From a virus (Duplodnaviria; Caudoviricetes), in IMG/VR virus record IMGVR_UViG_3300021976_000018, positions 1 through 55,086 of that record: a stretch of 55,086 nt of DNA; one strand, given 5' to 3'. Below, in pieces: positions 12,760-37,587 of this stretch. Positions within the stretch are counted from its first letter, which is position 1. The number at the start of each line of letters is the position of its first letter. The position numbers and the translations under genes were made by a program. The notes beneath the pieces were generated by a model. That model worked only from the letters and a program-made list of their open reading frames with translations. It was not told the DNA's origin and searched no databases.

Positions 12760-12820
12760 CGCTTGCCGATGCCGGCGTGGCCGTGGTCGCACGTGAAGTG
12801 CCACAGCACAGGGACGCCGC

Positions 12821-14753: not shown

Positions 14754-15262
14754 GACGCACCGGCCCTACGGAGGAACCCGCGCTCACGGGCCCAGGCACC
14801 GTGACGGTGGATGTGGCGATGGCAGCCGGTGCCGCAGACATCGAGCGTGTTCCACGCCTCGTCGCTGGACCCGGGCCCGCGGGGGATGATGTGGTGCCGG
14901 TCGGTCGGCCGTCCCTTACACACACCGGGGATGGCGGCTTCGCAGACGTCGGCCAGCGGCTCGTCGGGTCGGGCGCGGCCGGGGGCGTTCCACCGCTTGT
15001 TCGTCGGGGACGTCGGCCGCATCCGTTTGCGTCCCTGGCCTTCCGGTGGGGGCCAGGGGGTCAGCTCGCTACCCACCGGGGTGACCGTGACGAGGCCGTC
15101 AGCGAACGACGGGCCGGTCGTGCCGTGGCCGGGGCCGCGCTGGTAGTAGCTCGCCCCGGTGGAGTCCTTCGCCCGCCAGCCACGGGACTTCAACCAGCGC
15201 AGCGAGACGATGCGGTTGGCTGAACCGACCGACATGCCAACCTCGAGAACGGCGGTCACCAC
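14750..15262 (-). CDS. HNH-domain protein
   Basis: CE...C.G..TDRHH..PR..G...N.L.VC...CH..IH. Confidence 0.7.
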   Translation of the reverse strand: MVTAVLEVGMSVGSANRIVSLRWLKSRGWRAKDSTGASYYQRGPGHGTTGPSFADGLVTVTPVGSELTPWPPPEGQGRKRMRPTSPTNKRWNAPGRARPDEPLADVCEAAIPGVCKGRPTDRHHIIPRGPGSSDEAWNTLDVCGTGCHRHIHRHGAWARERGFLRRAGAS

Positions 15263-15504
15263 CCCACCCCCTTCGCCGCCAGCTGCTCGCCGTAGTCGCT
15301 TCGGCCGCCGAGGTGCGTGTACCGGTAGCGCTCACCGGCTGGCATCGGGTCGACCGGCAGGTTCAGCAGGAACCGGTAGAGGTCGATGGCGCAGCCGGGG
15401 CAGAAGTCGAGGCCGCGGCGCCGCTCCCACCGGTCGTCCGTCGAGTCCACGTAGCCGCAGCGGTCGCACGCGAACTCCCACGTCGGAATCTCGCGGGCAG
15501 TCAC
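15256..15504 (-). CDS. Zinc-finger protein
   Basis: CDRCG...DFCPGC. Confidence 0.6.
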   Translation of the reverse strand: MTAREIPTWEFACDRCGYVDSTDDRWERRRGLDFCPGCAIDLYRFLLNLPVDPMPAGERYRYTHLGGRSDYGEQLAAKGVGW

Positions 15505-15722
15505 GACCCGTCCAGGCTCTCGTCGACACCGGCTTTCAGCGCTTCCCACTCGGCCTCGGTCTTGTCGACGCCCGTCACACAGATGGGCTCCTCGTAGCAA
15601 CCGAAGGCGCAGATGCCGGCGGGGTCGTGGCCGGGCAGCTTGAACGACCGCCGGAAGTAGGGGCACGTGTCGTAGTCGGGGAACTCGACGTCGCCGTCTT
15701 CAATCCACCTCGGCTCGCTCAC
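15501..15722 (-). CDS. Hypothetical protein
   Basis: ORF track; coupled overlaps. Confidence 0.55.
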   Translation of the reverse strand: MSEPRWIEDGDVEFPDYDTCPYFRRSFKLPGHDPAGICAFGCYEEPICVTGVDKTEAEWEALKAGVDESLDGS

Positions 15723-16477
15723 TTCGCCCCCTTCTCTGCGTGGTCGGCCATGTACTTGGCCTCAGCGTCGAACCCTGTAGGCGCCGGGTCGGGGCCAGGA
15801 CCGGCGACGGTCGGCCCTGACCCGTCATCGGTGGCGGTCAGCTCCGCGAGGTAGGCGAGCGCGGCCTCGGCCTGCTTGGCGGTGAGACGGTCAGGCTCCG
15901 GGAGGTTCTGCTTCCTCGACCACTCCTGCAGCGGTGGCCACTGCTCGGCGGTCAGACCGGCGATGGCCTGCTTGACCGCGACGATCTGGGCCTTCGCTGC
16001 AGCGGGTTCGGCGCTACGGGCATCGGCCTCGTGCGTGGTGCCGTCGGCGTCGTCGACCGGGTCCGAGATCTGGAACGTCTGCAGCAGGGCGTACTTCATG
16101 GCCTGGGTGAGGCACTTGTTGCCGCCCTTGTCCGAGTTGTCCCGGCCGATAGCGAGGATGGGGCCGATGACGATCTTGTCCTCGATGCCGCCCGGGCCGT
16201 AGACGTCGTACTCGATCTCCTCGACGACGTCGGTCCACGGCTTGGCGTTGACCATCAACTCGCGCAGATCGAAGGAGATGACGCGGGGGGTGAACAGGAC
16301 GCCGTGGCGGGCGAACAGCTCCTGGGTGTGCGGGGTGATCTGGTCGATGCCCCGGTACCGGTAGCCGCCCTGCTTCGGGTCGGCCTGGCCGCCCTTCTCG
16401 ATCGACGGCAGGTCACGCATCACCCGGCACAGGGCCTCGATGACATGCGCCGCCTTCGGCTCTTCGGTGGCGCTCAC
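15719..16477 (-). CDS. ERF-family single-strand annealing (recombination) protein
   Basis: I.K.......Y.YRGID......F..HG...G.D.SDKG..K..T.A.KY.LLQ.F.I...DD.D. Confidence 0.88.
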   Translation of the reverse strand: MSATEEPKAAHVIEALCRVMRDLPSIEKGGQADPKQGGYRYRGIDQITPHTQELFARHGVLFTPRVISFDLRELMVNAKPWTDVVEEIEYDVYGPGGIEDKIVIGPILAIGRDNSDKGGNKCLTQAMKYALLQTFQISDPVDDADGTTHEADARSAEPAAAKAQIVAVKQAIAGLTAEQWPPLQEWSRKQNLPEPDRLTAKQAEAALAYLAELTATDDGSGPTVAGPGPDPAPTGFDAEAKYMADHAEKGAK

Positions 16478-16641
16478 GACTGCTCCCCTTGCGGCAGGAC
16501 GCCCTCAACCATGTGGTTGCGGTACGCCTCGGTGGCTTCGTCAAGGACCGGCGACGAGAACCAGGCCTTGCAGTAGCAGCGCACGAACCCTCCGTCGGGA
16601 TGACGCAGGCAGGCTTCGGCTACTCCGTGGAGGGCCATCAC
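16474..16641 (-). CDS. Hypothetical protein
   Basis: GTGA overlaps. Confidence 0.45.
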   Translation of the reverse strand: MMALHGVAEACLRHPDGGFVRCYCKAWFSSPVLDEATEAYRNHMVEGVLPQGEQS

Positions 16642-16859
16642 GACGTCACCTGACCGTCGGGCCACCACACGACGATTTCGTCGTCGCGGGCCTCGACCCT
16701 GCAGGCGTCGTCGTAGCTGCGCCGGCCCTCGGGCATGTCCAGCAAGGCCCAGTCGATGGCCTTCCGGACATCGGAGACGCACGCTCCCCGGTCGACTGGG
16801 GCCGGGACCACGTACTCGTGGCGGGTCGTGGTAACGGTGCGCTTCGAGACGGTGCTCAC
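16638..16859 (-). CDS. Hypothetical protein
   Basis: GTGA overlaps. Confidence 0.55.
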   Translation of the reverse strand: MSTVSKRTVTTTRHEYVVPAPVDRGACVSDVRKAIDWALLDMPEGRRSYDDACRVEARDDEIVVWWPDGQVTS

Positions 16860-17113
16860 AGCCCCGCCCCCCACCACGTCGGGTCGTAGCCGATGGGCAC
16901 GTCGTCCTCCATGAGCGGGTCGCGTTCGGACTCGTCGTCCTGCCACTCCCCTGCGGCGACGGTGTCGGGATGCAACGGGACCTCCGCGTCGTAGCGGGCC
17001 TTATCCGCGCGGCACTGCGCGTCCGTGGGCCGGCGTGGGCCGCGCTCCGTCATCCACGTGGCGTCCGCGAGCTCGGCCCGCAGGTTCGCCAGGTACTGGT
17101 CGTGGGCGGTCAC
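16856..17113 (-). CDS. Hypothetical protein
   Basis: ORF track; coupled overlaps. Confidence 0.55.
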   Translation of the reverse strand: MTAHDQYLANLRAELADATWMTERGPRRPTDAQCRADKARYDAEVPLHPDTVAAGEWQDDESERDPLMEDDVPIGYDPTWWGAGL

Positions 17114-17496
17114 GAGTCACCCCGCAGCCGGTGCAACTGGCGGAGCGTCTCGGCGGCGCTTGACTCGTCGTCGACGACGAACCAGCCGACGTCGCGGTCG
17201 TGGGCGTAGTTGCCGAGCGGAACCTCACCGAGGTCGATGACGATGCTCAGGGCGTCCTGCGTCTCCCGGTGCAGCTGGCTCGCCCGGTCCTGCTGCTCTC
17301 TCGTGAAGTGCAGGTCGCCGTCGGCATCTTTGAACAGGACCCACGCGAGGATGCGGGCGATGTCGCCTTCGACGTCGCTGTTGCCGTAGGGGCGCTTCGG
17401 GTCAATCTCGGGAGCGCCGTACTCGCAGTCGTTCCACCCCACGTAGGCCGCACGGAGCAGACGCAAGTGGTCGTGGGTGAGGGTGAAGCGCTTCAC
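17110..17496 (-). CDS. Phage hypothetical protein
   Basis: HLRLLR...W...E.GAP.IDPKRPYGNSDV..DI..IL. Confidence 0.7.
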   Translation of the reverse strand: MKRFTLTHDHLRLLRAAYVGWNDCEYGAPEIDPKRPYGNSDVEGDIARILAWVLFKDADGDLHFTREQQDRASQLHRETQDALSIVIDLGEVPLGNYAHDRDVGWFVVDDESSAAETLRQLHRLRGDS

Positions 17497-17801
17497 GTCG
17501 CACTCCCCCGGTCGACCGGCACGACAGTTCCATCGGCTTCGATGACGACCTCGAGCCCGCACCACATGCAGTCCCCCGTCAACCGGTCGGTATCGAGGGT
17601 CACAGCCCAGCGGAGGTTGAGCTGGTGACGGCAGTTCGACTGCTTCCACAGCTGGCCTTCGGCGTCGCCCTCAGCGACCAACTCGGCGAGCTGCACCGGA
17701 TCGAGGTAGACGACCATGGGCTCGTGGTCCGTGGGCAGGGTGAGCACGAACGGCTTGTCGGGGAACAGCAGCGTGGTGTCGAAGGAGAGGGTGGGCCTCA
17801 T
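17493..17801 (-). CDS. Hypothetical protein
   Basis: ATG 17801; C.H...CMWCG. Confidence 0.5.
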   Translation of the reverse strand: MRPTLSFDTTLLFPDKPFVLTLPTDHEPMVVYLDPVQLAELVAEGDAEGQLWKQSNCRHQLNLRWAVTLDTDRLTGDCMWCGLEVVIEADGTVVPVDRGSAT

Positions 17802-17907
17802 CGCGCCATCACCCAGAGGAAGGCGACGAAGCCGAAGACGAGCACGGCGGTCAGGGCGACGTCCGGCCATGTGATGCCCGACTCGGCAGCGGCGAACAAC
17901 AGGGCGG

Positions 17908-18234
17908 TCACGACTCACCGCCGACGTAGATGTCCTCGAAGCGGAAGGTGTGCGGGGAGCGGGCGAACGGCAGCGACTTGAGGCCGCACACCCTCTCGTC
18001 CTCGATGAGGGCGAGCACGGTACAGCCCTGCACCTTCTCCCAGCAGTCGACGTTGCACGCCTGCAAGACGCCTTCGATGAACCGGTAGCAGGACCGGCCA
18101 CCGCGCAGGTCGTAGCCGCCGGCGCCCTGGGCGCTGCCGCCATAGTCCAGATGGACCATCGCGGTGAAGATGCCGTGGTCCTCAGGACCGAGCTGGGTGG
18201 ACTCGATGCGAGCGATGCGTTCCTCGGTTGCCAT
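17908..18234 (-). CDS. Phage hypothetical protein
   Basis: ARIEST.LG.EDHGIFT....LDYGGS.QG.GGY.L; GAGG RBS. Confidence 0.7.
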   Translation of the reverse strand: MATEERIARIESTQLGPEDHGIFTAMVHLDYGGSAQGAGGYDLRGGRSCYRFIEGVLQACNVDCWEKVQGCTVLALIEDERVCGLKSLPFARSPHTFRFEDIYVGGES

Positions 18235-18254
18235 ACGATGTACCTCGTTCCGGG

Positions 18255-18749
18255 ACCCCGGCGACCTGCGCTCCACGCACTCGGTCGTCGGGGTTTCTTG
18301 TTGTCAGGTCAGGTCAGGTGCGGGCGTTCGGAGGCTGCGTCCATGACTTGCAGCACGTGCCGTCCCCCAAAGGGGGCGCCGTGTGGCTGGCACGTATGGA
18401 CTCCGGACGCCCTGCTCCCCGACCCGAGGGGCGCGGCGGGCGGACAGGACGCCTCCCCGGGTCGAGGGGCACGACGCCCCGATGAGGAAGAGCCCGCCGG
18501 CCCGGACCTCAGGGCGCCGTTACCGCCCCGGGTCTCGTCACGTCCCAGCCGAGTGGCGTCCCCTGGGTGCGTGCTACAGGCCAGCGGGTAGCCGACGACC
18601 ACAGCGGGTTGGGAACCCTGCAGTCGTCGGACATCGACGCTGGGCCCGGCCATGGCGGCAAGGCCGGACCCAGCTGCCCCGGCGGCGGAGTGGTGCCGCC
18701 GGGCGAAGGTGGCCGGGGAACAGGGCGGGCAACTCTGCGCCCCGGCCAC
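18255..18749. other. Dense array of at least seven adjacent inverted repeats, candidate structured RNA
   Basis: Stems read directly; coordinates are in the findings. Confidence 0.55.
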
Positions 18750-19019
18750 GAGCAGGAGACAGGACGACGACTCGCTGTCGCCCGACAGGACCGCGGCGAG
18801 GAGCACCGCGAGCACCACCACGACCGTGACGACGCTGATGACGTTCACCGCCCGGCGGTTGAACTCCTCCTGGCGTGGGTCAGGAGCCGTCACAGCCGAC
18901 CTCCCCGCACTGAGTAGGCGGGCAATCGGGGTCGCAAGGGTCGGGGTCATCGCAGCCCACGGCCAGTAGGGCCATCGCCGCGAACACGAGCGCCCAGAAG
19001 CGACGCACGAGGGAGGCCG

Positions 19020-19394
19020 TCATCCGTGGACCCGCCAGGTCGTCGGCCACTCGGGGACAGCGTCACGCATCCCGGTGAGCACCTTCACGAGCGTCTCGTA
19101 GCTACCCCACCCGTTCGCCGGGTTCATGGCGCTGTACCGCACGGGATTCGACTCAAGTTGTCGGATCAGAGCGTCTAGGAAGGCGGCGCCGGTGGGTCCG
19201 TCGCAGCCGTCGAGGCGCTTCCACCAGGGCGGGCCGATGGCCTTCCAGATCGGGTGGTCGTCGGGGGTCGCCTTGGCGTTGACGCAGCCGAGATCGGTGA
19301 GAGCCTCAGCGATCATGCCGTTGCAGTTGTGGGTGTAGTTCCAGTCGCCCTCGGTGTGGCCGCGGTCGTCGGTGAGGTAGGCGTCCCAGCTCAC
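19020..19394 (-). CDS. Phage hypothetical protein
   Basis: MSWDAYL...NYTHN...M...NP.NGWGSYE. Confidence 0.7.
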   Translation of the reverse strand: MSWDAYLTDDRGHTEGDWNYTHNCNGMIAEALTDLGCVNAKATPDDHPIWKAIGPPWWKRLDGCDGPTGAAFLDALIRQLESNPVRYSAMNPANGWGSYETLVKVLTGMRDAVPEWPTTWRVHG

Positions 19395-19672
19395 GGCGTC
19401 TCCTCCCACCACTGCGAGAACAGGACGAAGCCACCCCACGCGGCGCCTTCCTCGATGCCGGTCGTGTCGAACGACCGGGTGTACGTCAGCTCAGGTGCCG
19501 GCGTGAGGCTCAAGCCGCCGGCGGTGGCGAGGCACAGCGCCCACACGGCGCAGACCCGCAGGGTGCAGCGGCCCAGCAGCCACAGCACCGTGCCCGCCGT
19601 CGCGGTCACCGCGACAGCGACGACGTAGGCGGCCATGTCGGCGTAGGACATCGAGTCCAGGAGGGCGGTCAC
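19391..19672 (-). CDS. Membrane protein
   Basis: Hydrophobic helices; GTGA overlap with the next gene. Confidence 0.5.
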   Translation of the reverse strand: MTALLDSMSYADMAAYVVAVAVTATAGTVLWLLGRCTLRVCAVWALCLATAGGLSLTPAPELTYTRSFDTTGIEEGAAWGGFVLFSQWWEETP

Positions 19673-19807
19673 CACACACCTGCCTCGAGCTCGCGGGCCT
19701 CGTCGAGCTGCCGGTCCCACGCCGCCAGGAAGCGGCGCCACGTTGGGCGTCGGAGGGGCGCGGACGGGACGGCAGTCAGCTCCGCCGGCGTCCCTCCGAC
19801 AGTGGGC

Positions 19808-20011
19808 TCAGGCGAGGTCATCGAACTCTCCTGCCTTCACCCCGGCTACGAACGCCTGCCACTCGTCATGGTCGGCGTGGACCTGGTCACCGTTGGGGAA
19901 GCGGCTGTTGCGCAAGACGACGCCCGTCGCGCAATGACCGGGGCACGAGGCCACCTCGACGCACTGCTCGGTGACGTGGTCCGCACCGCAACGGCTGGAG
20001 CGGCGCCACAT
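19808..20011 (-). CDS. DUF397 (BldB-family) protein
   Basis: WRRSS.C.....CVEVA......V.LRNS..P.......EW.AFVAGVKAGEFD. Confidence 0.88.
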   Translation of the reverse strand: MWRRSSRCGADHVTEQCVEVASCPGHCATGVVLRNSRFPNGDQVHADHDEWQAFVAGVKAGEFDDLA

Positions 20012-20159
20012 CAGCTCGCCTCCTGCTTGCCGCGTCCACATGGACAGTCCTGCGGGCAACGGCAGCGGGCCCGGGCCATGCGGAAGACGCGGGCGGTGTC
20101 GGCGAGGACGACCGGGTCGCGGAAGCTCGCCGGGATGTCGCGCTCCTGGGTGTCGGCCA

Positions 20160-20564
20160 TCACGCACCCTTCCGGCGCAGGAGCGCGGCGTCATCGGAGG
20201 CGACGAGCCCGGCCTTGTAGCGGGCCCGGTGGAACACGCGGCTGGTCAGCCGGCGGCACCGCCAGTACTGGCGGTAGGCCCACAGAGCGGGGACGACGGG
20301 CTTGAAGCACAGCGGCTCGCCGGGGTTGTGGGGACCGGCGATCTGCGACGGCCGCTGCAGCGAGAGCCCGCAGGTCGGGCAGATACCCCAACGATTCGGG
20401 TCGTCGATGCACACGCGGACGAGGCGGTCGCGCAGTCCGTCGAGTGCTTCGGTCGTGTCGTCGACCGCGTCGATCAGGTCGTGGGCGCCATCGTGGTCGG
20501 TGGGGATATCGGCGTCGTTGGCGATGCCTGTGGTCACGTGGAGGAGGTCGGTGAGTCCGCTCAC
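20160..20564 (-). CDS. Hypothetical protein
   Basis: GTGA overlap with the Cro stop. Confidence 0.55.
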   Translation of the reverse strand: MSGLTDLLHVTTGIANDADIPTDHDGAHDLIDAVDDTTEALDGLRDRLVRVCIDDPNRWGICPTCGLSLQRPSQIAGPHNPGEPLCFKPVVPALWAYRQYWRCRRLTSRVFHRARYKAGLVASDDAALLRRKGA

Positions 20565-20773
20565 GACTCCCCCAGGAGGTTGATGCCGAGGGCGGCGGCG
20601 ATAGCGAGGAACGTGTCGAGGCTCCCGATGCCGCTCTCTGCTCTGCTGATGGTGGCCGCCGTGACCTTGGCCATCTCGGCGACGGTCGCCTGGTTCAGGT
20701 CACGGCGGGCACGCTCCATGCGGAGCTTCTCGGCCCACTTCTCCTGCACCTCGGCTGCGGTCTGATTCGGCAC
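20561..20773 (-). CDS. Cro-like XRE HTH protein, first gene of the lytic operon
   Basis: LRMERARRDLNQATVAEMAKVTAATISRAESG; divergent from the repressor. Confidence 0.85.
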   Translation of the reverse strand: MPNQTAAEVQEKWAEKLRMERARRDLNQATVAEMAKVTAATISRAESGIGSLDTFLAIAAALGINLLGES

Positions 20774-20871
20774 GAGCAGTACAGTATCCGCAATACTGGT
20801 TCGGCACAAGTGGTACTTGAATGACAATTGCATCTTGCGCACGACGTACGTTCCGTACGACAATCGCAAGC
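20774..20871. promoter_or_regulatory. Divergent lysis/lysogeny promoters with candidate operators
   Basis: Minus strand: TTGTGC-N17-TACTGT-N7-GTG(20773). Plus strand: TTGCGC-N18-GACAAT-N7-GTG(20872). Palindromes CAGTAT-ccgca-ATACTG (20782-20798) and CGTACG-ttc-CGTACG. Confidence 0.7.
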
Positions 20872-21225
20872 GTGCCCGACGCTGCGGACCTCACTGAGGC
20901 GTTCGCTGGCGCCGTCGCCGAGCTGGAGGACCGGGGTTACACCCGCGAGCAGATCGCCGAGCGACTCGGCGTGAAGGCACCGACGCTCAGTCGGTACGTC
21001 ACTGGCAAGGCCGGCGTCCAGGTGGAACACCTGCCGATCATCGACACCCTGCTGGGTGAACGCCTGGGCTACGTGTTGAGACTCGCCGGGTTCGTCGACC
21101 CCGAGACCGACACCCGCACGACGCTGCGTACCGACCGGGGACTAGAGCCGGACCAGCGCGGGATCCTCGTGAAGATCTACGACGGGTTCCTGGAGCTACT
21201 GGCGTCGCGCTCCGGCGGCAGCTGA
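20872..21225 (+). CDS. Immunity repressor (XRE HTH, no S24 peptidase domain)
   Basis: YTREQIAERLGVKAPTLSRYVTG; 117 aa; divergent from Cro. Confidence 0.82.
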   Translation: MPDAADLTEAFAGAVAELEDRGYTREQIAERLGVKAPTLSRYVTGKAGVQVEHLPIIDTLLGERLGYVLRLAGFVDPETDTRTTLRTDRGLEPDQRGILVKIYDGFLELLASRSGGS

Positions 21226-22386: not shown

Positions 22387-22559
22387 GGTTGTCAACCTCC
22401 TCGGGGTTGATTGCCACGGCCCGGGTGTCGTTACGGCGTCGCCCGGGCCACTTCGCGTGGTCACGAAGGTAGGCGACATTGTCGGCGATGTCCACGGTCT
22501 CACCATTGGCGACGATGTAAGACTCGCTCGCGATGGGCGCAATCGGTAGAACTCCCGCC

Positions 22560-22730
22560 GTGGGAAACGTGGTGGTGAAGATCGACGACGACCTCCACGC
22601 CCGCGCACGGGCACTGCAGGTCCGCAAGCCAGGCACCTGGGCCGAGTGGGTCGAGGCCGCCATCGCCGAGGCCGTCGAACGCCAAGAGGCGGAACGGGCC
22701 GAAGAGGACCGCAAGAAGCGCAGCCGTTAG
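22560..22730 (+). CDS. Ribbon-helix-helix regulator
   Basis: NVVVKIDDDLHARARAL.....TWAEWVEAAIAEAV. Confidence 0.65.
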   Translation: MGNVVVKIDDDLHARARALQVRKPGTWAEWVEAAIAEAVERQEAERAEEDRKKRSR

Positions 22731-22869
22731 CCGTAGGGCCAGCGGCGCTTGCCGTGCTGGTGGTCGCCGCGGTGCCGGGCGGGTAGCTCGCAGTTCACGG
22801 TCCCCCACCACACGTGGGTCCAGCCGGGGCATGGTTCCTGCAAGCCGAGGAGGCGGGCGATGGCACCCA

Positions 22870-23088
22870 TCACGCCTCCTTCGTTTCGGCTGCGAGCCTG
22901 AAACTGACGGAGCGGGAGAGCGCCCCGGCACCGGGCGTGGAGAGGACATCGGCGGTGATGACGTCGGCGACGATCTCGTAGCGTTCCTCGTCGGAGGTGG
23001 CGTTGCGATACTCCTTCACCGTCATCTCGTCGAGGTCGATCGTGCCCTGGGCGTCCCGGGTCTGGGTGAACTCGTAGTCGGCCTGCAT
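22870..23088 (-). CDS. Hypothetical protein
   Basis: AGGAG RBS; acidic 72-aa ORF. Confidence 0.6.
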   Translation of the reverse strand: MQADYEFTQTRDAQGTIDLDEMTVKEYRNATSDEERYEIVADVITADVLSTPGAGALSRSVSFRLAAETKEA

Positions 23089-23168
23089 GTGGTGCTCCTA
23101 TCTGGGGTGGCGCGCGGCGCTAACCCCTGTTTCGGCCGGTTTCGGCTCTCATCGGGGGTGGAGGGTCA

Positions 23169-23249
23169 GGGGATAGAGTGCAGGTCAGAGGCCCTGTCGG
23201 GTCTCATCGGGGGGGATAGGATCTGCGCGATAGGGGGATAGGGGGATAG
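23169..23249. repeat. 8-bp direct repeats GGGGATAG, clt-like transfer locus
   Basis: Perfect copies at 23169, 23212, 23234 and 23242, plus CGCGATAG at 23226, directly downstream of the FtsK/TraB stop. Confidence 0.7.
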
Positions 23250-23253
23250 GGCG

Positions 23254-25482
23254 TCAGTCGGTGGTTTCGGGGGGTGAATCGGGCACTTCGCCGGCCTTCT
23301 CGACCAACACGTCGAGGACCTGTTTCAGCTCGAAGCCCTTGCGGTTGCACTTCGCCCCGCCCTCGACGGGGGTGGCCCACGTCTGGTTGCCGGCGTCGAT
23401 CCCGAACCGGCCGAGGGCGGCGGCGAGGTCGCTCTGATCCCACGTCTCGTAGAGGCCCGGGTAGGTGCCAGTCAGGCGGGCGCACAGCACCGCGGAGTGG
23501 GCCTTGTCCTCGCCCTCGAACGCGGCGGCGACGTGGTTCAGGACCTGGTCCGAGAGGGCCTCGTCCTCCTCCCCCGCAGCGACACCGGTCAGGGTGCCTT
23601 CGCCTTCGCGTAGGGCACGGGCCCGGTTGGCGACCTTGGTGGCGGCGGGGAGGTCCATCAGGTGGGCGTGGACGGTCTGGCCGCCCTTGTCGACGAGAGC
23701 CCCGTCATCGGCGCCGAGCAGGATGCAGACGCCCTTGTCGGTGGCTCGGAACTTCGACGTGTTCAACCCGGCCCGGGAGCTGCCCGAACCGAGGATCATC
23801 TCGGAGGCTTCGTCGGTGATCATGCGCAGGGCGATGCGGGTGCCGAACAGGTCCCGGAAGTCGGTGTTCATGATCTTCGAGCTGGGCCGTTGCGTCGCCA
23901 GCGCCAGGATGATCCCGGCGCCTGACCCTCGTTGGGCGAGGATCGTGAGGGCCTCGAGGATCTTGGTGCCGTACGCCTTGTTCTGCAGGTAGACCTGGAA
24001 CTCGTCGATCGCCAGGAACGTGACCGGCATCTTGAGCTTCCGGTCCCTAGCGAGTGCCCTGGTCAGCTTGCCTTCGGGGCAGCGGTCGTCGGGGAGGCGG
24101 CTCATCTTCTTGTACCGCTCGTCCATGTCCCGGACCAGGTCCGTCGCGGTGGCGAGCAGGGCTTTCGCGACCTCGTCGGAGGCGCCGGCACCGAAGGCGT
24201 GGCACACCCGCTCGAACGGGGCGTGGTCCTTGCCGCCCTTGCCGTCCCACAGCAGGAGCTTCACGTACGGGTCCATGGCGGCGGCAGCGATCAGGAGCCG
24301 CAGCACGAACGTCTTGCCCATCCTCGGCAGGGCCCCGATCAGGACATTGGTCCACAGCATGAGGAACTCGACCAGCTGGTCCTTCTCGTCCTGCCCGAAC
24401 GGGACTTCCTGCCACACGTCGAACTTCGCTGCCTTGACCAGCGGGGAGGTGACCGCGGGCCCGGAGAGCGGGTCGTCATCGGCGATCCACAGCTTGACCT
24501 GACCGGCGTGACCTTGGGGTCCGGTGGCCTGTTCGATGAACAGGCGTCGCTCGCTGATCCGGAGGCCGGCGGCGATGTCGGTCTTGCGCTTGATCGCCAG
24601 CTTGGCGGTGAAGCCCAACGGCAGGTCCACGATGGCCCCGTAGCCGGCCTTCTCCCGGTAGACGCCGGGGGCCGCGAAGTCCGGGGCGTCAGGGCCGGTG
24701 ACTTCCTTGCACAGCTTGGCCCCGTAGAGGGCCATGACGATCATGTCGGGAGTGATCTTGCGGGCCTGTGGGGACGACGTGACGGCGGACTCGATGTAGG
24801 GCCGGTCCATCGGCCGGCCCCACCAGCCGAGACCGAAGACCACGGTCAGGACCGTGGGGGCCACAGTCTCCCACCGCGTGAGACCAACGACGACGAGGGC
24901 CACGGCCGCGGCGGTCCCGAGGACCGCGACGGGGACCCGGGAGCGGACCTGGTCCCGGCGTTCGCGGGCCACCCGCATGTAGGGCCCGTAGTCCCGGGTC
25001 GTGATCGCGTGTTCCGCCGCGGACCATTCGACGTCACGCGACTCGCGGACCCTCGCCCACCTGCCCACACTCACGGCGAGGCGGCCGAGGCCACGGGGCG
25101 ACCACAGCAGGTTGAGGCCCACGTACTTCGGCAGGCGGATCACGTGAAAGGCGGACACGTGGTAGGCGTGGTTGGCGGCGAACCGGATGGCGTCGGCGGG
25201 TTCGCGCAGGGCCTCGGGGACCAGCGGCCTCCGGTCCCGTTCGGTCCAGTGGTCCTCCGCGACGTAGGGCCGGGGTGGGACCACGGTCCGGGTGGGCCGG
25301 TCCCCGACCAGGCGGACCGTCTGGTCCTCGGGGCCGTCGTCGTCGTGGTCCCAGTTGGCCCCGCCGGACCCGGGGGTCCAGTCGTGGTCCCCGTTGGTCT
25401 CGGGCTGGTCCCGGCCGGCCCTACGTCGGAGCCAGCCGGGGGCCACGTCCCCGCGGTACAGGCGACGCCACAGCGGGTTCAT
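23254..25482 (-). CDS. FtsK/SpoIIIE-family DNA translocase of the Streptomyces TraB type
   Basis: N-terminal TM pair, Walker A GALPRMGKT, DGKG, Walker B FLAIDEFQ, ATQRP, and a C-terminal wHTH-like segment (L.ARL...YP.LY..W....LAAAL..FGI...NRKG). Confidence 0.88.
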   Translation of the reverse strand: MNPLWRRLYRGDVAPGWLRRRAGRDQPETNGDHDWTPGSGGANWDHDDDGPEDQTVRLVGDRPTRTVVPPRPYVAEDHWTERDRRPLVPEALREPADAIRFAANHAYHVSAFHVIRLPKYVGLNLLWSPRGLGRLAVSVGRWARVRESRDVEWSAAEHAITTRDYGPYMRVARERRDQVRSRVPVAVLGTAAAVALVVVGLTRWETVAPTVLTVVFGLGWWGRPMDRPYIESAVTSSPQARKITPDMIVMALYGAKLCKEVTGPDAPDFAAPGVYREKAGYGAIVDLPLGFTAKLAIKRKTDIAAGLRISERRLFIEQATGPQGHAGQVKLWIADDDPLSGPAVTSPLVKAAKFDVWQEVPFGQDEKDQLVEFLMLWTNVLIGALPRMGKTFVLRLLIAAAAMDPYVKLLLWDGKGGKDHAPFERVCHAFGAGASDEVAKALLATATDLVRDMDERYKKMSRLPDDRCPEGKLTRALARDRKLKMPVTFLAIDEFQVYLQNKAYGTKILEALTILAQRGSGAGIILALATQRPSSKIMNTDFRDLFGTRIALRMITDEASEMILGSGSSRAGLNTSKFRATDKGVCILLGADDGALVDKGGQTVHAHLMDLPAATKVANRARALREGEGTLTGVAAGEEDEALSDQVLNHVAAAFEGEDKAHSAVLCARLTGTYPGLYETWDQSDLAAALGRFGIDAGNQTWATPVEGGAKCNRKGFELKQVLDVLVEKAGEVPDSPPETTD

Positions 25483-26315
25483 GGGTAGCGGCCGGCGATC
25501 TCGGTGGCCTTCGTGGTCCCGATCGTGTGGCCCTCGGCCCGAACCTTCGCGGTGAGGGACCGGCGGGTGACACGCTGCCCGTTGTTGGCCATCTGCTGGG
25601 CGATCAACTCGGCTGCTGTCGTGTCGGCGTCCCCGTTGGAGCTCGCGGGCGGGGCCGTGAGGGCCGGTCGGTCGAGCTGGGCGGGGGCCAGGCGGCCGAG
25701 GCGGTACATGACCCGCTGGCGGCGCGGTGCCTTCCACCGGTACGCGACGGCGCCGTGTGCGTCCTGTAGGTCGCTGCGGGCCAGGAGACGGTCCTGCTCG
25801 CGGTCGAGGGCTTGCGGGTAGGAGCGCAGCTCCCACAGGACCATGCGGCGCCACAGCAGCAACGTGGGCAGCGGGGCGAGCAGCCACCGGGAGGGCCGGA
25901 TCCGGTCCATCCTCGGCGCACCCCTACCCGACAAGCCGGCGAGGGTGCGGACCACGTGGGCGCCGGCCTCGACGGCGACGACCCACAGCAACGGGAGCAC
26001 ACCGTGGGCGAGCTGGCCCACCAACGTGACCTCGCCGGCGACGTTGAGGTACACGGTCGTCCCCACCAGCGCCCAGGGGACGAGGCGCAGCCACCGGGTC
26101 CGCATCCCCATCCGGGCCATGAGCAGGTCCAGGCCGGTGAACGCGGCGATGCCGATGTCGATGCCGAGCGGGACCGTGGGGGCCAGGTCACCGAACGAGG
26201 GGCGGACCGCTTCGGCGACGTGCGTGAAGCTATTGACGGCGCCGATCAGGCCGAGCGCGGCCACGAGCCCCACCACCGCGTGGGTGGCGTAGCGCTCCCA
26301 CTCGTTGGTGTTCAC
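25479..26315 (-). CDS. DUF2637 (Spd-like) membrane protein
   Basis: IG.VNSF..V...VPLGID.GI...T.YLNV...HGVLP.LWV..VE...RMDRIR.SRWLLAP..T..LWRRM.LWE.RSY; four TM helices. Confidence 0.8.
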   Translation of the reverse strand: MNTNEWERYATHAVVGLVAALGLIGAVNSFTHVAEAVRPSFGDLAPTVPLGIDIGIAAFTGLDLLMARMGMRTRWLRLVPWALVGTTVYLNVAGEVTLVGQLAHGVLPLLWVVAVEAGAHVVRTLAGLSGRGAPRMDRIRPSRWLLAPLPTLLLWRRMVLWELRSYPQALDREQDRLLARSDLQDAHGAVAYRWKAPRRQRVMYRLGRLAPAQLDRPALTAPPASSNGDADTTAAELIAQQMANNGQRVTRRSLTAKVRAEGHTIGTTKATEIAGRYP

Positions 26316-26452
26316 CAGCCCTTCCCCCCGGACGCGACCGCCCACGTCAGGAGCAGGGTGATCGTCAACCCGCGGTGACGGCGGGCGAACGCGACGGCGG
26401 CACGGGTGAGGCCGTACACGCACCTCACGAGGAGGACCGGTGCGACCATCAC
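26312..26452 (-). CDS. Small membrane protein of the transfer operon
   Basis: GTGA overlaps at both ends; hydrophobic. Confidence 0.5.
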   Translation of the reverse strand: MMVAPVLLVRCVYGLTRAAVAFARRHRGLTITLLLTWAVASGGKGW

Positions 26453-26664
26453 GCGATGTTCCCCTGGCCCAGCCCGGAGGCGACCGCGTTGATGATCGAC
26501 GTGAAGATCTCGAGGCTCTCGGCGGCGAGGGTGTCGACCATGCTGCCCGGCTCGGAGGCCTTGAGCAGCAGCATCCCGAGCAGGACGTGGGGGAGCTGGA
26601 CGCCCTTCATCTTCCAGGCGGCCAGTACGACGATCAGGAGGAGGAGGCCGAGCGAGACCGTCAT
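26449..26664 (-). CDS. Small membrane protein of the transfer operon
   Basis: MTVSLGLLLLIVVLAAWK...HVLLGMLL. Confidence 0.65.
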   Translation of the reverse strand: MTVSLGLLLLIVVLAAWKMKGVQLPHVLLGMLLLKASEPGSMVDTLAAESLEIFTSIINAVASGLGQGNIA

Positions 26665-26693
26665 GGCGTCCGCGCCTTGGTCTTAGTGGACAT

Positions 26694-26792
26694 GAACGGC
26701 ACGGTAGCACGGGCGTAACGCCCATCCCGCTCTTCCCGCCTGTTACGCTTGGTGTTCCATCCGGGATGACCGGGACGCGCTAGACGTAGGGG
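26694..26792. promoter_or_regulatory. Divergent promoter region between the transfer operon and an RHH gene
   Basis: Minus-strand extended -10 TGcTACCGT (26701-26709); inverted repeat GCGTAAC (26713-26719) / GTTACGC (26742-26748). Confidence 0.5.
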
Positions 26793-26951
26793 ATGAGTGT
26801 GCTGAAGATCGAGAACTTTCCAGGCGACCTACACAAGAAGCTGAAGGGCCTGGCGGTCGACTCGGAGGAGACCCTGCGAGAAATCATCATCAGGGCTGCA
26901 GCCACCGAGGCGGAGCGCATGGAGGCCGAGCGTCAGGCCAGCGGCCAGTGA
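26793..26951 (+). CDS. Ribbon-helix-helix regulator (52 aa, in a Kor-like position)
   Basis: Translated by hand: MSVLKIENFPGDLHKKLKGLAVDSEETLREIIIRAA... Confidence 0.7.
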   Translation: MSVLKIENFPGDLHKKLKGLAVDSEETLREIIIRAAATEAERMEAERQASGQ

Positions 26952-27361
26952 GCGCTCCGCTGTTCGCAGCGCCGCGGCCGTGCAACACCTGCCCGTACCG
27001 GCGCGACACCCCGCCGGGCGTCTGGCACCCGGACGAGTACGCCAAGCTCGCCACCTTCGACGACCAGCACGACGGGTCGCTGCCCAACCTCGCAGTGTTC
27101 CGCTGCCACCAGCAGACCGCCACCAACGTGCCGACCGTGTGCCGTGGCTGGCTGTCGGTCCACGCCCACACGCCCGCGATCCGTATGGCCGTCATCACAG
27201 GGCAGGTCACGGTCGACCAGGTGTTCGCCGAGGTCGATGTGGAGCTCTACGAGACAGGCGCCGAGGCGTGCGCCGCCGGCATGGCCGGTGTCGAACGGGT
27301 GAGCTCTCAAGCGTCACGAGCCATCGACAAGCTGCAGCGCCGCGGCGTGGGGGTGGAGTGA
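26948..27361 (+). CDS. DUF6283-like Cys-rich protein
   Basis: PCNTCPYRRD.P.GVW...EY.KL..FD...F.CHQ......CRGWL. Confidence 0.7.
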   Translation: MSAPLFAAPRPCNTCPYRRDTPPGVWHPDEYAKLATFDDQHDGSLPNLAVFRCHQQTATNVPTVCRGWLSVHAHTPAIRMAVITGQVTVDQVFAEVDVELYETGAEACAAGMAGVERVSSQASRAIDKLQRRGVGVE

Positions 27362-27944: not shown

Positions 27945-28565
27945 GTGCCCGCGCCCGCGCCCCCGACGAACAAGGGCCAGAAGTTCCCACCCGAACCACT
28001 CACCGCCGACGAGGTCCACCGCCTGCTGAAAGCAGCATCGAACCGATCGTCGTCCGGGATCCGGGTCCGGGCGCTCATCGCAGTCATGTACGGCGCCGGT
28101 CTCCGCATCGCCGAGACCATCGACCTCTACCCGCGGGACGCCGACACAGAGGCCGGGACCGTGAGGGTGCGCCGTGGGAAGAACTCGAAGTGGCGGTTCG
28201 TCGGCCTCGACCCCTTCGCTTGCGGACTGGTCGACCGCTGGCTCACCCGTCGCAACGACCTAGGACTGAACGGCCGGCACCCCATCTTCACCACGTACTC
28301 CGAGGGGAACATGGGCACTCCACTCAGTCAGCGCTACATCCGCACCGCCCTCAGCCGGCTCGCCGAGCGGGGCGGCATCGAGAAGCGCGTCCACCCGCAC
28401 GGCCTACGGCACTCGTTCGCGTTCGACCTCGCCCAGCGTGGCATCCCCATCCACCAGATCCAAGCGCAACTCGGTCACGAGTCCCTGTCGGGGACGGAGC
28501 GGTACATCTCCCACCTCGCACCCATGGACGTCGTCGCGATGATGCGCAACCGGGACTGGAGCTAG
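27945..28565 (+). CDS. Short tyrosine recombinase (catalytic domain only, FimB-like size)
   Basis: GLRIAE (R), RRGKNSK (K), HGLRH, LGH and TERY (Y); AAAGGA RBS. Confidence 0.92.
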   Translation: MPAPAPPTNKGQKFPPEPLTADEVHRLLKAASNRSSSGIRVRALIAVMYGAGLRIAETIDLYPRDADTEAGTVRVRRGKNSKWRFVGLDPFACGLVDRWLTRRNDLGLNGRHPIFTTYSEGNMGTPLSQRYIRTALSRLAERGGIEKRVHPHGLRHSFAFDLAQRGIPIHQIQAQLGHESLSGTERYISHLAPMDVVAMMRNRDWS

Positions 28566-33287: not shown

Positions 33288-33635
33288 TCAGCGTACGTCG
33301 ATGACCTCGGGCCGGTTTGGCACGGCCCAGACGCCGGCAGCCACAGCGGCGGCGATGGCGACGTTCAGCCACAGGGCGTTGGTCATGTGTTCCCCGTTGG
33401 CGAGGTAGCCGCCCAGCAGACCGAGCCCGGCGAGCGCACCCGCGGTGACGGCCTTGGCCTTGTCCCACAGCGGCAGGCCGACGTTGGCGGTGACGAACAC
33501 GGCGAACGCGGCGACGCCGGCCGTGGCGACCTGCACCCACTCGGGGTGCGTGATGGTGTCGTCGGTCATCGCGGCGGCGACCGCCATCACGACGGCGCCG
33601 ATCACTGCGGTGATGGACTTTGCGTAGGCACTCAC
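33288..33635 (-). CDS. Holin
   Basis: Four TM helices in a duplicated YAKSITA / KAKAVTA ... VTAN / VWAVPN unit; lies in the lysis cassette. Confidence 0.8.
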   Translation of the reverse strand: MSAYAKSITAVIGAVVMAVAAAMTDDTITHPEWVQVATAGVAAFAVFVTANVGLPLWDKAKAVTAGALAGLGLLGGYLANGEHMTNALWLNVAIAAAVAAGVWAVPNRPEVIDVR

Positions 33636-33851
33636 CGGAGACTCCTGGCTCCGCCGGCACGGTTGAAGGCCCGGCGGATCTCAGCCGCCAGATCCTCCGG
33701 GGCTTTGCCCGTGAAGTGGATCTTCACCTCGATCGATGGAGTCGGGCAGCCATCGCTAACGGGAACGCAGCACATTCTGTCCTCCTTGTTGGATTCGGGC
33801 GCGACGGTCTGGGACCTCGCGCACACGCCGAGGGGTCGTGGTAGGTGATGA

Positions 33852-34301
33852 TCACGGCGTGGTCTCGACGTCGACGCAGACACCGGCGCCCGGGTCCCAG
33901 CGGCGGTCGGGTAGCTCGTTCACGATCTGCTCGAGGGCAGGGGTCAGCTGCTCGGTGAGATGCGCCCGGTAGGCGGCGATGTCTTCGGGGGAGGCGGCGG
34001 TCACGGTGAGGATCAGAGCCTCCCCGCCCGCGGTCCCTGACGCGACGCCGCCATCGAGGACCATGTCGCGGAGGATGCGGCGGGTCTCGGCGGCGTCGTC
34101 GCATGACCGCTCGGCGGCTGCGAGGCGGGTGGCTTCGATGGTGGCGTCCTGGCGTTCCTGCCGGTCGTTGAACGTCTCCTGGCGGATGAACCCCCACACC
34201 GATGCGCCGCCGAGGACGACGAAGCCGAGGAGGACCCCGGCGAGCGACTGGCGGACCGACACGGCCCGGCCGTCACCGACCGTGTCGTCGGTGGCTTTCA
34301 C
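33852..34301 (-). CDS. Lysis-cassette membrane protein
   Basis: One TM helix followed by a helical domain with two Cys; GTG 34301. Confidence 0.6.
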   Translation of the reverse strand: MKATDDTVGDGRAVSVRQSLAGVLLGFVVLGGASVWGFIRQETFNDRQERQDATIEATRLAAAERSCDDAAETRRILRDMVLDGGVASGTAGGEALILTVTAASPEDIAAYRAHLTEQLTPALEQIVNELPDRRWDPGAGVCVDVETTP

Positions 34302-34389
34302 TGGGCTGCGTCCAGCCACCAGGCCACGACCGCACCCACGGCGAGGGCGATGAGGGCGAGCCGATCCCGGTAGATGAACAGCAGCCGCA

Positions 34390-34611
34390 TCACACCTCGG
34401 CTCCCGGGTCCGGGACCAGCGGCGGAGGAGGAGGCCCGGTGCGCACCTTCCCATACAGACGCGCCGCCTCCGTGCTGCCAAGCGCCGCGCCAATGAACGC
34501 CAACGCCGCCGGCCGTGCCCCCCAGAACGCCAGCTCGCAGGTCCCCCACCCGAGGGCCACCACGAACTTCGCTGACCGCTCGAACTGCTCGGAGACGAGG
34601 CGCCTCCACAC
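34390..34611 (-). CDS. Small membrane protein of the lysis cassette
   Basis: Two hydrophobic stretches, downstream of the endolysin. Confidence 0.5.
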   Translation of the reverse strand: MWRRLVSEQFERSAKFVVALGWGTCELAFWGARPAALAFIGAALGSTEAARLYGKVRTGPPPPPLVPDPGAEV

Positions 34612-34639
34612 GCGCTACCTCACCCTCGGGTAGGTCACG

Positions 34640-35440
34640 TCAGCCGTCGACGCGCAGGGTGTTGAGGTAGTCGAACTTGGCCTTGCTGACACCCCACACC
34701 AGCGCGCCCTCAGGCGGGCCCCAGCTCTCGCCGTCGACCTTCATCGTGACGAGCGGCCGTTCCGGGTCGTGGGTGGGGAGCAGGTGCAGCACCGCTCCGG
34801 TGTCCTTCTGGCGTGCGAACCACATCGGGTCTTCCTCCAAGGGTTCAGGGGTGGGCTCGGGGACGGGGGCCTGCGGGCGCAGGTCGGCGGTCAGGTGCTC
34901 GTAGTGGGCGAGGAACTGCGGCCACGGGAACGAGCGGCCGGGGTCCGTACGGCGGGCGGGGTCGCGTTCGGCGTGCGAGATGAACCCGGGGATACGCATC
35001 TCGGACTCCACCCGGTTGATGCGCCGCGCCGGAATGAGAATCCCCCGCCGGTCACGCAGCCAGCGGGCGTACCGGGCCGCTGCTGCTGCCGCTTGGTGGA
35101 CGGCGCCGTCACGCCACGCCTTCGGAGCCAGCGGCCACACGTCCGCTCGAGTCGCGACGGACACGCCGTAGCTGTGCCGGTTGCTGCCGGTGCCGTCGTG
35201 GTACGCCTCGCAGTCGTAGGCCACGAGGTTGATGCAGCTGTCGGAGTCGACGAGGTCGTGGTACGAACCCGGGTCGCTACGGGTGCGGACGAAGTTGGCG
35301 ACCGCCTCCGCCCCGCCGTCGAATGCCACGAAGTCCGGAGTGTTCTCCGCAGTGTGAACACAGACCACGCCGCTCGGGGCTTCCCGCCTCGGGCGACGGA
35401 ACTGCGAGCTCGCGGGCGGGTGGGTGTCGAGCCAAGCCAT
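34640..35440 (-). CDS. Endolysin, N-acetylmuramoyl-L-alanine amidase (Amidase_2)
   Basis: VCVHTAE, SYH.LVD, AYH...N..S.GV, ISHA..DP..RTDPG..FPW. Confidence 0.9.
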   Translation of the reverse strand: MAWLDTHPPASSQFRRPRREAPSGVVCVHTAENTPDFVAFDGGAEAVANFVRTRSDPGSYHDLVDSDSCINLVAYDCEAYHDGTGSNRHSYGVSVATRADVWPLAPKAWRDGAVHQAAAAAARYARWLRDRRGILIPARRINRVESEMRIPGFISHAERDPARRTDPGRSFPWPQFLAHYEHLTADLRPQAPVPEPTPEPLEEDPMWFARQKDTGAVLHLLPTHDPERPLVTMKVDGESWGPPEGALVWGVSKAKFDYLNTLRVDG

Positions 35441-35451
35441 GGTACATCTCC

Positions 35452-37154: not shown

Positions 37155-37158
37155 GGGT

Positions 37159-37560: not shown

Positions 37561-37587
37561 GGGTCTCCTTGCGAGGTCAGGTGGTGG

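Follow-up and report, generated by a model that had tools for sequence, protein, structure and literature searches.

A candidate TraB-type DNA transfer module in the lysogeny region of a probable temperate actinophage genome

IMG/VR virus record IMGVR_UViG_3300021976_000018 (Duplodnaviria; Caudoviricetes), analyzed here over its whole length of 55,086 bases and called the window, carries a short operon that ends in a gene for an FtsK/SpoIIIE-type ATPase and is followed by a cluster of 8-bp direct repeats. Our preferred reading, which we hold with moderate confidence, is that the lysogeny region of this genome contains a working one-protein system for transfer of double-stranded DNA, of the type found in Streptomyces plasmids and in integrative and conjugative elements of actinomycetes (AICEs), and that this system would act on the phage genome itself. 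The ATPase groups with a characterized TraB, the repeats stand where a clt site would be expected, and both are conserved together in a second virus record. The same combination recurs in other phage-like records and in a circular replicon from a cultured strain, pPaSha2 of Pseudonocardia alni Shahu.

The ATPase as a TraB-type protein

The translated ATPase contains a Walker A motif (GALPRMGKT) and a Walker B motif (FLAIDEF). One hydrophobic segment (residues 183-201) exceeds the threshold of the script, and a second was recognized by eye at about 205-222. In an AlphaFold (AF2) model, based on a 27-row alignment and with a predicted local distance difference test (pLDDT) of 79, long helices occupy residues 166-202 and 204-222, the latter coinciding with the segment found by eye. 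The C-terminus is predicted to run helix-strand-helix-helix-strand-strand-helix at 646-730 (the unit without the last helix at 646-718), with pLDDT 80-90. The topology in this model fits a winged helix, as had been suspected from the sequence for this segment; no profile match to FtsK_gamma of Pfam was found at the C-terminus. Foldseek placed FtsK motor domains first (E about 1e-15), followed by the coupling protein TcpA, and in PHROGs the protein belongs to phrog_1358 (5e-32).

By BLASTP the ATPase is 31% identical to TraB of plasmid pSVH1 over 355 aa (E 7e-43), which passages of PMC4447253 present as a biochemically studied TraB. The best chain among solved FtsK proteins, that of E. coli FtsK, gave E 4.5e-6. 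A FastTree phylogeny (LG model; 393 motor-region columns, 169 unique sequences) was built from the window protein, 28 metagenome proteins, and those IMG/VR and genome loci whose open reading frames (ORFs) reach 450 aa. As references it included five proteins from plasmids or phages and five chromosomal ftsK loci found via the gamma domain; metagenome loci L060-L139 and five exact duplicates were left out. The window protein falls in a clade of 148 sequences (support 0.971), with pSVH1 TraB as the first branch. The clade does not include pIJ101 Tra, the FtsK-like protein that phage Gilgamesh encodes, or 13 non-actinobacterial hits; also outside it are four chromosomal FtsK proteins, all from genomes in which TraB homologues are present as well. 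The fifth "chromosomal" ftsK ORF groups with the non-actinobacterial hits and may be a wrong ORF pick. This grouping with pSVH1 TraB, apart from chromosomal FtsK, agrees with the original prediction, which had taken the ATPase for a TraB; judged by sequence, the protein is closer to the characterized TraB than to chromosomal FtsK and can be classed as TraB-type. The NCBIfam model "plasmid_TraB" was also tried as a family test and proved unusable, as even pSVH1 TraB reaches no more than 41 bits where the cut-off is 800.

Among 72,556 plasmid records, 105 match the ATPase at E up to 1e-5, pSVH1 being one of them, and 63 of the 105 are recorded for Streptomyces. The nearest named relatives belong to Pseudonocardiales, Lentzea, Micromonospora and Actinoplanes, at 39-41% identity, which suggests that the host is probably not Streptomyces. 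The module had been described as Streptomyces-type; this holds for the type of TraB, whereas a Streptomyces host is not supported by the nearest named relatives.

Repeats following the traB-like gene

The 55,086 bases contain four copies of the 8-mer GGGGATAG, which reads CTATCCCC on the coding strand, all of them within 23169-23249 (plus-strand starts 23169, 23212, 23234 and 23242), and the array begins 5 bases past the traB stop. The 8-bp repeats first noticed after the ATPase gene are real and are the only four copies of the word in the window, packed within 81 bases. The expectation for the whole window is 0.65 copies, and four copies anywhere were reached in 2 of 100 shuffles, which were scored on number and not on clustering. 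The clt-like region further contains a fifth CTATC (23229-23233), one inverted copy (23098-23102) and a TGACCTG element, and five of the ten GATAG copies of the window lie in a stretch of 78 bases there.

Conservation of this region can be followed in a second IMG/VR record, G001 (33,957 bases; locus L002; its TraB is 64% identical), the nearest relative among those compared at the DNA level. G001 likewise has four copies of CTATCCCC in all, and their offsets match those in the window. The repeat regions are 84.3% identical (140 of 166 bases), compared with 74% for the whole tra block. Within TraB, identity to G001 is highest, at 81%, in the predicted winged helix, 73% in the motor and 43% in N-terminal residues 86-240. 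As a control, the same script recovered the plasmid's own GACCCGGA-type repeats at this position after pSVH1 traB. According to passages of PMC3583192 and PMC4447253, clt regions are short direct repeats beside or overlapping the end of a tra gene and are bound via alpha-3 of the winged helix. The repeats of the window are, as far as sequence comparison goes, the putative cognate clt-like docking site of its TraB.

For every fetched TraB relative, the 160-200 bases past the stop codon were extracted. Distant relatives carry words with CTAG, a tetramer otherwise rare in these genomes, at this place, on average 3.18 per 160 bases against 0.14 expected (172 loci); in 73 of these loci (L142-L203 and many metagenome loci) the word is found 5-8 times in 160 bases. 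The CTAG words recur in pairs around a central TGACC-like element, and the pattern looks like a family-wide clt architecture. Of 176 unique loci, 74 have a cluster of CTA[G/T]C (at least three in 160 bases) after traB, compared with 117 of 17,600 random windows from the same loci; by source they were seen in 49 of 62 genome loci and 5 of 51 IMG/VR loci, and leaving out L143 and L145, whose genomes are flagged as unpublished, shifts these counts by at most two. TGACCTG follows traB in 34 of the 176 loci (about 6.6 expected), an enrichment that is far from universal. No motif array was found inside the DUF2637 gene of the window.

The tra operon and its partner proteins

The operon genes (Table 1) overlap by 1-4 bases, with the junctions GTGATG, GTGA and ATGA; spd genes also overlap one another, according to passages of PMC4447253. 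Two small membrane proteins had been proposed for this coupled operon. The overlaps are present and orf71 has a hydrophobic helix; no segment of orf46 rises above a simple hydrophobicity threshold, so the description is weaker for the second of the two. Homologues of orf71, 61-62% identical, were found in L002 and L061, and orf46 has no family match and no tblastn match in any fetched locus. The larger two products are as originally described, a four-helix DUF2637 protein and a membrane-anchored 742-aa ATPase with Walker motifs, on which Pfam, the translations and the models agree.

The DUF2637 model (36 rows, pLDDT 83) consists of four long helices that a disordered linker joins to a bundle of three C-terminal helices, the bundle being predicted with very high confidence. 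In the model, the helices would fit a four-pass membrane bundle. A Foldseek search of the PDB returned a best E of 1.8 and no solved relative. Database relatives of the protein number 336 and are unnamed or called "DUF2637", the closest named ones being from Actinomadura, Nonomuraea, Spirillospora and Thermomonospora. DUF2637 genes adjoin TraB-like genes in plasmids L141, L228 (pPaSha2) and L234; the contexts are an AICE-like plasmid with Prim-Pol and integrase, a 90-kb linear plasmid, where they stand behind a GntR regulator, and pPaSha2. Complex prediction for TraB residues 85-262 with the DUF2637 protein gave no verdict (score 0.00).

Among phage proteins, the DUF2637 protein resembles gp24 of the temperate Streptomyces phage VWB (40.6% identity, E 2e-15) and gp79 of Gilgamesh (43.6%). 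We assume, and it is an assumption only, that VWB gp24 is the SpdB2 homologue meant by Thoma 2015; the indirect link from the DUF2637 protein to SpdB2 via gp24 rests on it. Passages of that paper (PMC4447253) mention SpdB2 homologues on phages phiC31 and VWB.

The spacer upstream of the operon contains the inverted repeat that had been noticed there, GCGTAAC-N22-GTTACGC at 26713-26748, with perfect 7-nt arms. At the aligned position of G001 the sequence is TGCGTA-N24-TACGCA; the GCGTA/TACGC core is common to both, the sequence between the arms has diverged, and beside the repeat of G001 the stretch CTGCTACCGT..CATGT..ACT is conserved. Across the spacer lies a divergent gene for a 52-aa protein, with a 75% identical homologue at the same place in G001. 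This gene had been called a ribbon-helix-helix (RHH) regulator. A small divergent gene is indeed present; the RHH fold is suggested by sequence pattern alone, as no match was found in Pfam, NCBIfam or PHROGs and the best solved structure, the CopG-family RHH protein 9kkd, matched weakly at E 0.26. A scan of 22400-28000 with consensus promoters and terminators gave no promoter-like site and one terminator-like site, inside traB and on the wrong strand.

Occurrence among phages, plasmids and genomes

The 21 closest proteins are 49-77% identical to the ATPase, all full length and all metagenomic, and several are on contigs of 40-61 kb. A scan of IMG/VR with the single protein as query detected no relative, and one with an alignment as query detected 58 loci, of which 50 were queried further. 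The phrog_9 large terminase co-occurs with the TraB relative in 29 of these 50 records; it does so in 12 of 18 records with a completeness rating of 90% or more and in 5 of 7 that have terminal repeats. A tape-measure match (PF10145) is present in 11 of the 50, and a DUF2637 gene accompanies the TraB relative in 20. A search of other phage genomes had been suggested as a check, and these terminase-bearing records and pPaSha2 show that the arrangement recurs. Among 50,697 phage records, megablast with the module gave no match, and tblastn with TraB matched only Gilgamesh (28%, E 4e-8) and nothing in VWB. The 21 full-length relatives, the 29 of 50 records with a terminase and pPaSha2 suggest that the module is maintained by selection.

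In the tree, TraB sequences from phage contexts are spread over many subclades and interleaved with plasmid, AICE and genome copies. Of 50 cultured genomes that have a TraB relative, 34 gave no match to the phrog_9 terminase, so many of these genomic copies are probably AICE-borne; in the two cases that could be placed, the terminase lies more than 100 kb from the TraB locus.

G001 shares its gene order with the window: its large terminase is at the contig start (186-1616) and traB at about 28.7-30.9 kb. Nucleotide identity between the two is 71% for the tail genes and 74-82% for the tra block, whereas the head genes show no detectable similarity. A homologue of the serine integrase (50% identity) lies in G001 on the opposite side of the tra operon. 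The module thus travels through a mosaic phage lineage, and its conservation is no lower than that of the virion genes.

The phage genome carrying the module

The record is classed as "linear" and has a GC content of about 0.69, with nearly all genes on the minus strand. The window is probably the complete genome of a temperate siphovirus-like soil phage whose host was an uncultured high-GC actinomycete. Its layout is the usual one of temperate siphovirus-like actinophages, in a virion or replicative permutation; it is not that of an integrated prophage, because the integrase is central and a prophage would have it at one end. Both recombinases, the tra module, the HTH gene and a tRNA-Met share the genome center, and the module itself is placed between the integrase and repressor genes, with the terminase-to-endolysin genes on one side and the repressor, Erf and replication initiator on the other. 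The head, tail and lysis genes had been judged intact, and PHROGs and Pfam together identify a full terminase-to-endolysin set (Table 1).

Table 1. Coordinates of the tra module and of other features of the window
Feature	Position	Strand	Basis or remark
traB-like gene, 742-aa FtsK/SpoIIIE-type ATPase	23254-25482	-	PF01580, 1.6e-8
Clt-like non-coding region	23089..23253	-	Directly after traB stop
DUF2637 membrane protein, candidate Spd-type partner	25479-26315 (to 26345 with upstream start)	-	Pfam PF10935, 7.7e-18
orf46, 46 aa	26312-26452	-	Overlaps both neighbors
orf71, 71 aa, first operon gene	26449-26664	-	N-terminal hydrophobic helix; GC at third codon positions (GC3) 0.97
Divergent control region	26665..26792		
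Divergent regulator candidate, 52 aa	26793..26951	+	RHH-like by sequence pattern alone
DUF6283 protein	26948..27361	+	PF19800, 4e-29; phrog_18249
Basic protein of about 161 aa with hydrophobic core segment	27361..27846	+	ORF list; no Pfam family
Xer-like tyrosine recombinase, 206 aa, catalytic domain only	27945..28565	+	PF00589, 8.6e-38
Large serine integrase, 512 aa	28577..30115	-	Pfam Resolvase, Recombinase, Zn_ribbon_recom
Three small genes beyond repeats	22533..23088	72 aa and 48 aa -, 65 aa +	
Helix-turn-helix HTH_3 (Cro/CI-type) repressor candidate	20821..21225	+	Pfam PF01381, 1.6e-7
Early-gene arm	322..20773	-	
Replication initiation protein, phage-type	2915-3613	-	phrog_2447
N6/N4 DNA methylases, two	4289-5440 and 7026-8498	-	
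Erf recombinase	15719-16477	-	
Virion and lysis module	33288..55034	-	PHROGs and Pfam
Small terminase	54621-55034	-	Gene start 52 bases from record end
Large terminase	52883-54643	-	
Portal, SPP1-type	51349-52872	-	
VG15-like protein	50561-51349	-	
Major head protein	49043-49921	-	
Tail completion protein	45092-45514	-	
Tape measure	40955-43588	-	
Tail proteins	40053-40958 and 37588-40056	-	
Amidase endolysin	34640-35440	-	

The short Xer-like recombinase matches XerC and XerD models only over model positions of about 95-275, and no other gene is as similar in the window and G001 (93% aa, 90% nt). In pPaSha2, too, a short integrase is found upstream of the module (L228, 6282-6836; 33% over 89 aa), and in 7 of 182 loci BLAST detected relatives that lie upstream of traB by no more than 5 kb. 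To link this recombinase functionally with the FtsK-like pump, on the model of XerCD and FtsK, would be speculation.

Replication genes of AICE type were not detected. Prim-Pol has no match in the window, and the Rep families have none among the ORFs scanned, RepSA not being among the families searched; the search for RepAM (PF12307, DUF3631) also gave no match and is uninformative, as its control responded nowhere. The earlier observation that no AICE-type Rep is visible, and that the phage initiator would have to serve, is consistent with these scans and with the phage-type initiator in the early arm. ParA (AAA_31) and ParB_N, the two partition families searched, have no match in the window.

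Both sides of the module were checked for continuity. Contigs of two Logan runs tile 18000-37000 with zero mismatches and an even depth of 7-11 and bridge both junctions, individual contigs spanning 19272-26072, 26045-32450 and 25478-37000. The two bridging runs represent one sample, which may be the source of the record. Run X3 has pieces of traB, the repeat region and the endolysin at 90-95% and no bridging contig, and X3 and X4 contain only small shares of the window. A chimeric assembly, which the original prediction had raised as a concern, is unlikely given the bridged junctions.

Several other genes of the genome may be mentioned. Next to the tra module, the gene for the DUF6283 protein has no match in G001, the gene for the basic protein of about 161 aa is 75% identical in nucleotides to G001 at 25490-25778, and the 65-aa RHH/HicB-like ORF (22533-22730, plus strand) matches the HicB-like family phrog_9151 at 1.7e-4. 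An ORF of 353 aa at 31850-32911 (plus strand) has a C-terminal HicB/UPF0150-like antitoxin signature below the Pfam cut-off. In megablast against the 50,697 phage records, the large terminase gene alone of the 22-kb structural arm gave matches, namely to its counterparts in Tsukamurella phage TPA4 and 15 Gordonia phages at 74-76% nucleotide identity. Within the head-tail block, at 46656-47729 (minus strand), a 357-aa protein ends in an Lsr2 DNA-binding domain (PF23359, 1.2e-10), a phage-borne domain like that of xenogeneic silencers in an unusual location. The early arm contains, at 14211-14753 (minus strand), a match to Vut_1 (PF02592, putative vitamin or queuosine-precursor transporter; 2.3e-9).

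Proposed function and alternative explanations

If the module works as a transfer system, the small regulator would keep the tra operon shut. Transfer would need expression of the operon together with free phage DNA, be it a circle that has been excised or is replicating, or DNA just injected. The winged helices of TraB would then dock on the CTATCCCC repeats, and a TraB hexamer would assemble in the membrane where hyphae touch or at a septal cross-wall. ATP hydrolysis would drive the phage double strand into the adjoining compartment or cell, through a membrane and cell-wall passage that the DUF2637 protein and the small proteins may form, as Spd proteins do in plasmid spreading. The arrived DNA would be established by the phage integrase and replication initiator. 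Such a genome would have two routes, by particle and by contact. That the pump would act on its own replicon, the phage genome, is suggested because the docking site lies on that replicon and is conserved together with the DNA-reading domain.

A broader proposal can be put forward only tentatively. Widespread integrating tailed actinophages might be "conjugative phages", which move either as virions or through a TraB pore acting on a phage clt, the latter route being independent of receptors and able to reach beyond the host ranges of the particles. The short Xer-like recombinase might then work with the pump, as XerCD does with FtsK, to resolve concatemers to monomers before or after transfer.

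Several observations weigh against a working transfer system of this kind. The DUF2637 protein and pSVH1 SpdB2 are not detectably related (BLASTP E 2.9), SpdB2 has no DUF2637 match, and in tblastn searches of 182 loci the SpdB2 query gave 2 hits and the pIJ101 SpdB query none. The 52-aa regulator is, by its sequence, not of the GntR type of TraR and KorA in Streptomyces plasmids, and its fold is unproven. Only the placements of the references (pSVH1 TraB, FtsK, pIJ101 Tra and Gilgamesh) are informative in the tree, because the ingroup was gathered by similarity to the query. PHROGs files phrog_1358 under "moron, auxiliary metabolic gene and host takeover" with no role assigned, and FtsK-like genes also occur in lytic Streptomyces phages, so that other roles are possible. 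The host may not be mycelial, CheckV estimates the completeness of the record at 71%, and no RNA runs are listed as containing the stretch.

The main rival explanation, less probable in our judgment yet a serious one, is that the module serves a single mycelium, spreading incoming or induced phage DNA across septal cross-walls, or clearing it and partitioning it into spore compartments, and thereby raising the burst size or the share of lysogenic spores with no transfer to other individuals. The resemblance of the DUF2637 protein to gp24 of VWB, a phage with no TraB-like match, fits this explanation, and passages of Luthe et al. 2023 (PMC10117723) count ftsK among phage genes that possibly manipulate development. 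Against it, pSVH1 TraB and clt are required for transfer between mycelia according to passages of PMC4447253, and both are present and conserved together here. Use within one mycelium and use between mycelia are not separable by sequence.

It is rather improbable that the tra genes, repeats and short recombinase are a selfish cassette derived from an AICE or plasmid, or a decaying one, that does the phage no service. Mobility of this sort would explain why the recombinase and tra block are the best conserved parts relative to G001, where the head genes are dissimilar and the serine integrase is displaced; the interleaving of phage-borne with AICE- and plasmid-borne TraB, and the 34 terminase-free cultured genomes, point in the same direction. 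However, a search of 20000-31500 for direct repeats flanking the module, as candidate attachment sites, gave none, and no Prim-Pol or Rep family was matched in the scans described above, with the same limits for RepAM and RepSA. All four genes are intact in both the window and G001, the closest relatives are full length, and the arrangement is kept in records with terminal repeats.

Still less credit can be given to another task for the ATPase, such as exclusion of plasmids, AICEs or phages, mobilization of host DNA, or a defense function of FtsK/HerA type. PADLOC reports partial P-loop matches to SspH (4.7e-18), mad8 and HerA, which, like the PHROGs category, could be taken in its favor; these matches cover only the core of the ATPase (residues of about 360-566), no neighboring gene matches a defense family, and a cis site conserved with the DNA-reading domain fits a pump on its own replicon. 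Fusion of an AICE contig to a phage contig may be set aside as very improbable: the record does come from a metagenome assembly, with the ratings "linear" and 71% completeness, but Logan contigs of two runs (one sample, possibly the source) bridge the junctions without differences at even depth, the separately numbered record G001 has the same gene order, and pPaSha2, a closed circle from a cultured strain, has the same combination.

If the module does transfer phage DNA, temperate actinophages would be able to spread without particle or receptor. Models of host range, of the spread of lysogens in soil mycelia and of gene flow in antibiotic-producing actinomycetes would change, and the boundary between prophage and AICE would be blurred. 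Surveys of conjugation based on relaxases and type IV secretion systems would miss such pumps; in PLSDB both pPaSha2 and pSVH1 are rated "non-mobilizable". The matching repeat words over more than 70 loci offer a data set for co-variation of the TraB reading head and its site, and the cultured pPaSha2 strain, together with the pair of repeat and winged helix, makes the case directly testable.

Comparison with known systems

The closest functional model is pSVH1, a Streptomyces venezuelae plasmid (Reuther 2006 and Vogelmann 2011, as cited in PMC3583192; Thoma 2015). In both, small genes, a gene for a four-helix membrane protein, traB and 8-bp direct repeats follow one another in the same order, the genes overlap, a regulator is divergent, and TraB has an N-terminal membrane anchor and a C-terminal winged helix, the latter a prediction in the case of the window. 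The two differ in the replicon, a 12.6-kb rolling-circle plasmid in one case and a 55-kb tailed-phage genome with integrases in the other, and in the regulator, GntR-type TraR as opposed to the 52-aa RHH-like candidate. The partner of TraB is SpdB2 in pSVH1 and in the window a DUF2637 protein without detectable similarity to it, and the repeat word is GACCCGGA rather than CTATCCCC.

AICEs are defined by Int, Rep and a Tra protein of FtsK/SpoIIIE type, and their maintenance is prophage-like. The window shares with them an integrase and an FtsK/SpoIIIE-type Tra protein and differs in its full virion and lysis module and in having no match to an AICE-type Rep, with the limits given above for RepAM and RepSA. 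In the AICE-like plasmid NZ_CP107792, a TraB relative with 32% identity occurs along with a DUF2637 gene.

A single replicon that combines virion genes with a tra locus is also known from pZL12, which we take to be a 90-kb autonomous plasmid prophage with repA. The comparison is by description only, and by description the window is set apart by its 55 kb, its serine integrase and the lack of a match to ParA/ParB_N or Prim-Pol. As cited in passages of PMC3583192, pZL12/phiZL12 (Zhong et al. 2010, J Bacteriol 192:3747) is a virion-making Streptomyces replicon whose conjugal locus consists of a major tra gene and adjacent genes. pZL12 was not recognized among the 60 listed of 133 plasmid records. 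The 90-kb NZ_CP108519, considered as a look-alike of pZL12, turned out to be an ordinary linear plasmid with GntR, TraB-like, DUF2637 and ParAB genes.

Among phages, VWB and phiC31 resemble the window in their Spd-like genes, the counterpart of the DUF2637 protein being gp24 in VWB. Gene 10 of Gilgamesh is annotated as "FtsK-like DNA translocase", falls outside the TraB clade and is about 67 kb away from the DUF2637 gene of that phage. The literature searched has no report of pump, partners and repeats all together in VWB, phiC31 or lytic Streptomyces phages, nor, subscription papers excepted, of an integrating tailed phage that carries TraB with clt.

Among plasmids, the best match is pPaSha2 (CP052773.1; L228, L230), a 41,938-bp circle from Pseudonocardia alni Shahu that was deposited as a plasmid. 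Its TraB relative, annotated as FtsK, is 31.7% identical at 88% coverage. pPaSha2 has terminase, portal, prohead protease, major capsid, holin and Bet genes and HTH regulators, and its short integrase, small ORFs, DUF2637 gene and TraB relative stand in the same order as in the window. It differs after traB, where the next ORF follows directly and no CTA[G/T]C cluster is present in 160 bases. By its annotation, pPaSha2 is a complete phage-like genome kept as a 42-kb circle in a cultured strain. The strain paper (PMC8928166) nowhere contains the name pPaSha, and passages of it are silent on a native plasmid of the strain; the paper does present conjugation-based genetics for this strain.

A hybrid of phage and tra genes is thus not without precedent, given pZL12, the Spd homologues in phiC31 and VWB, and the ftsK-like genes of actinophages with their PHROGs family. 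The present case contributes an integrating 55-kb phage with the full pSVH1-type set, the conservation of repeat and reading head together, a recurrent short Xer-like recombinase, and a counterpart in a cultured strain.

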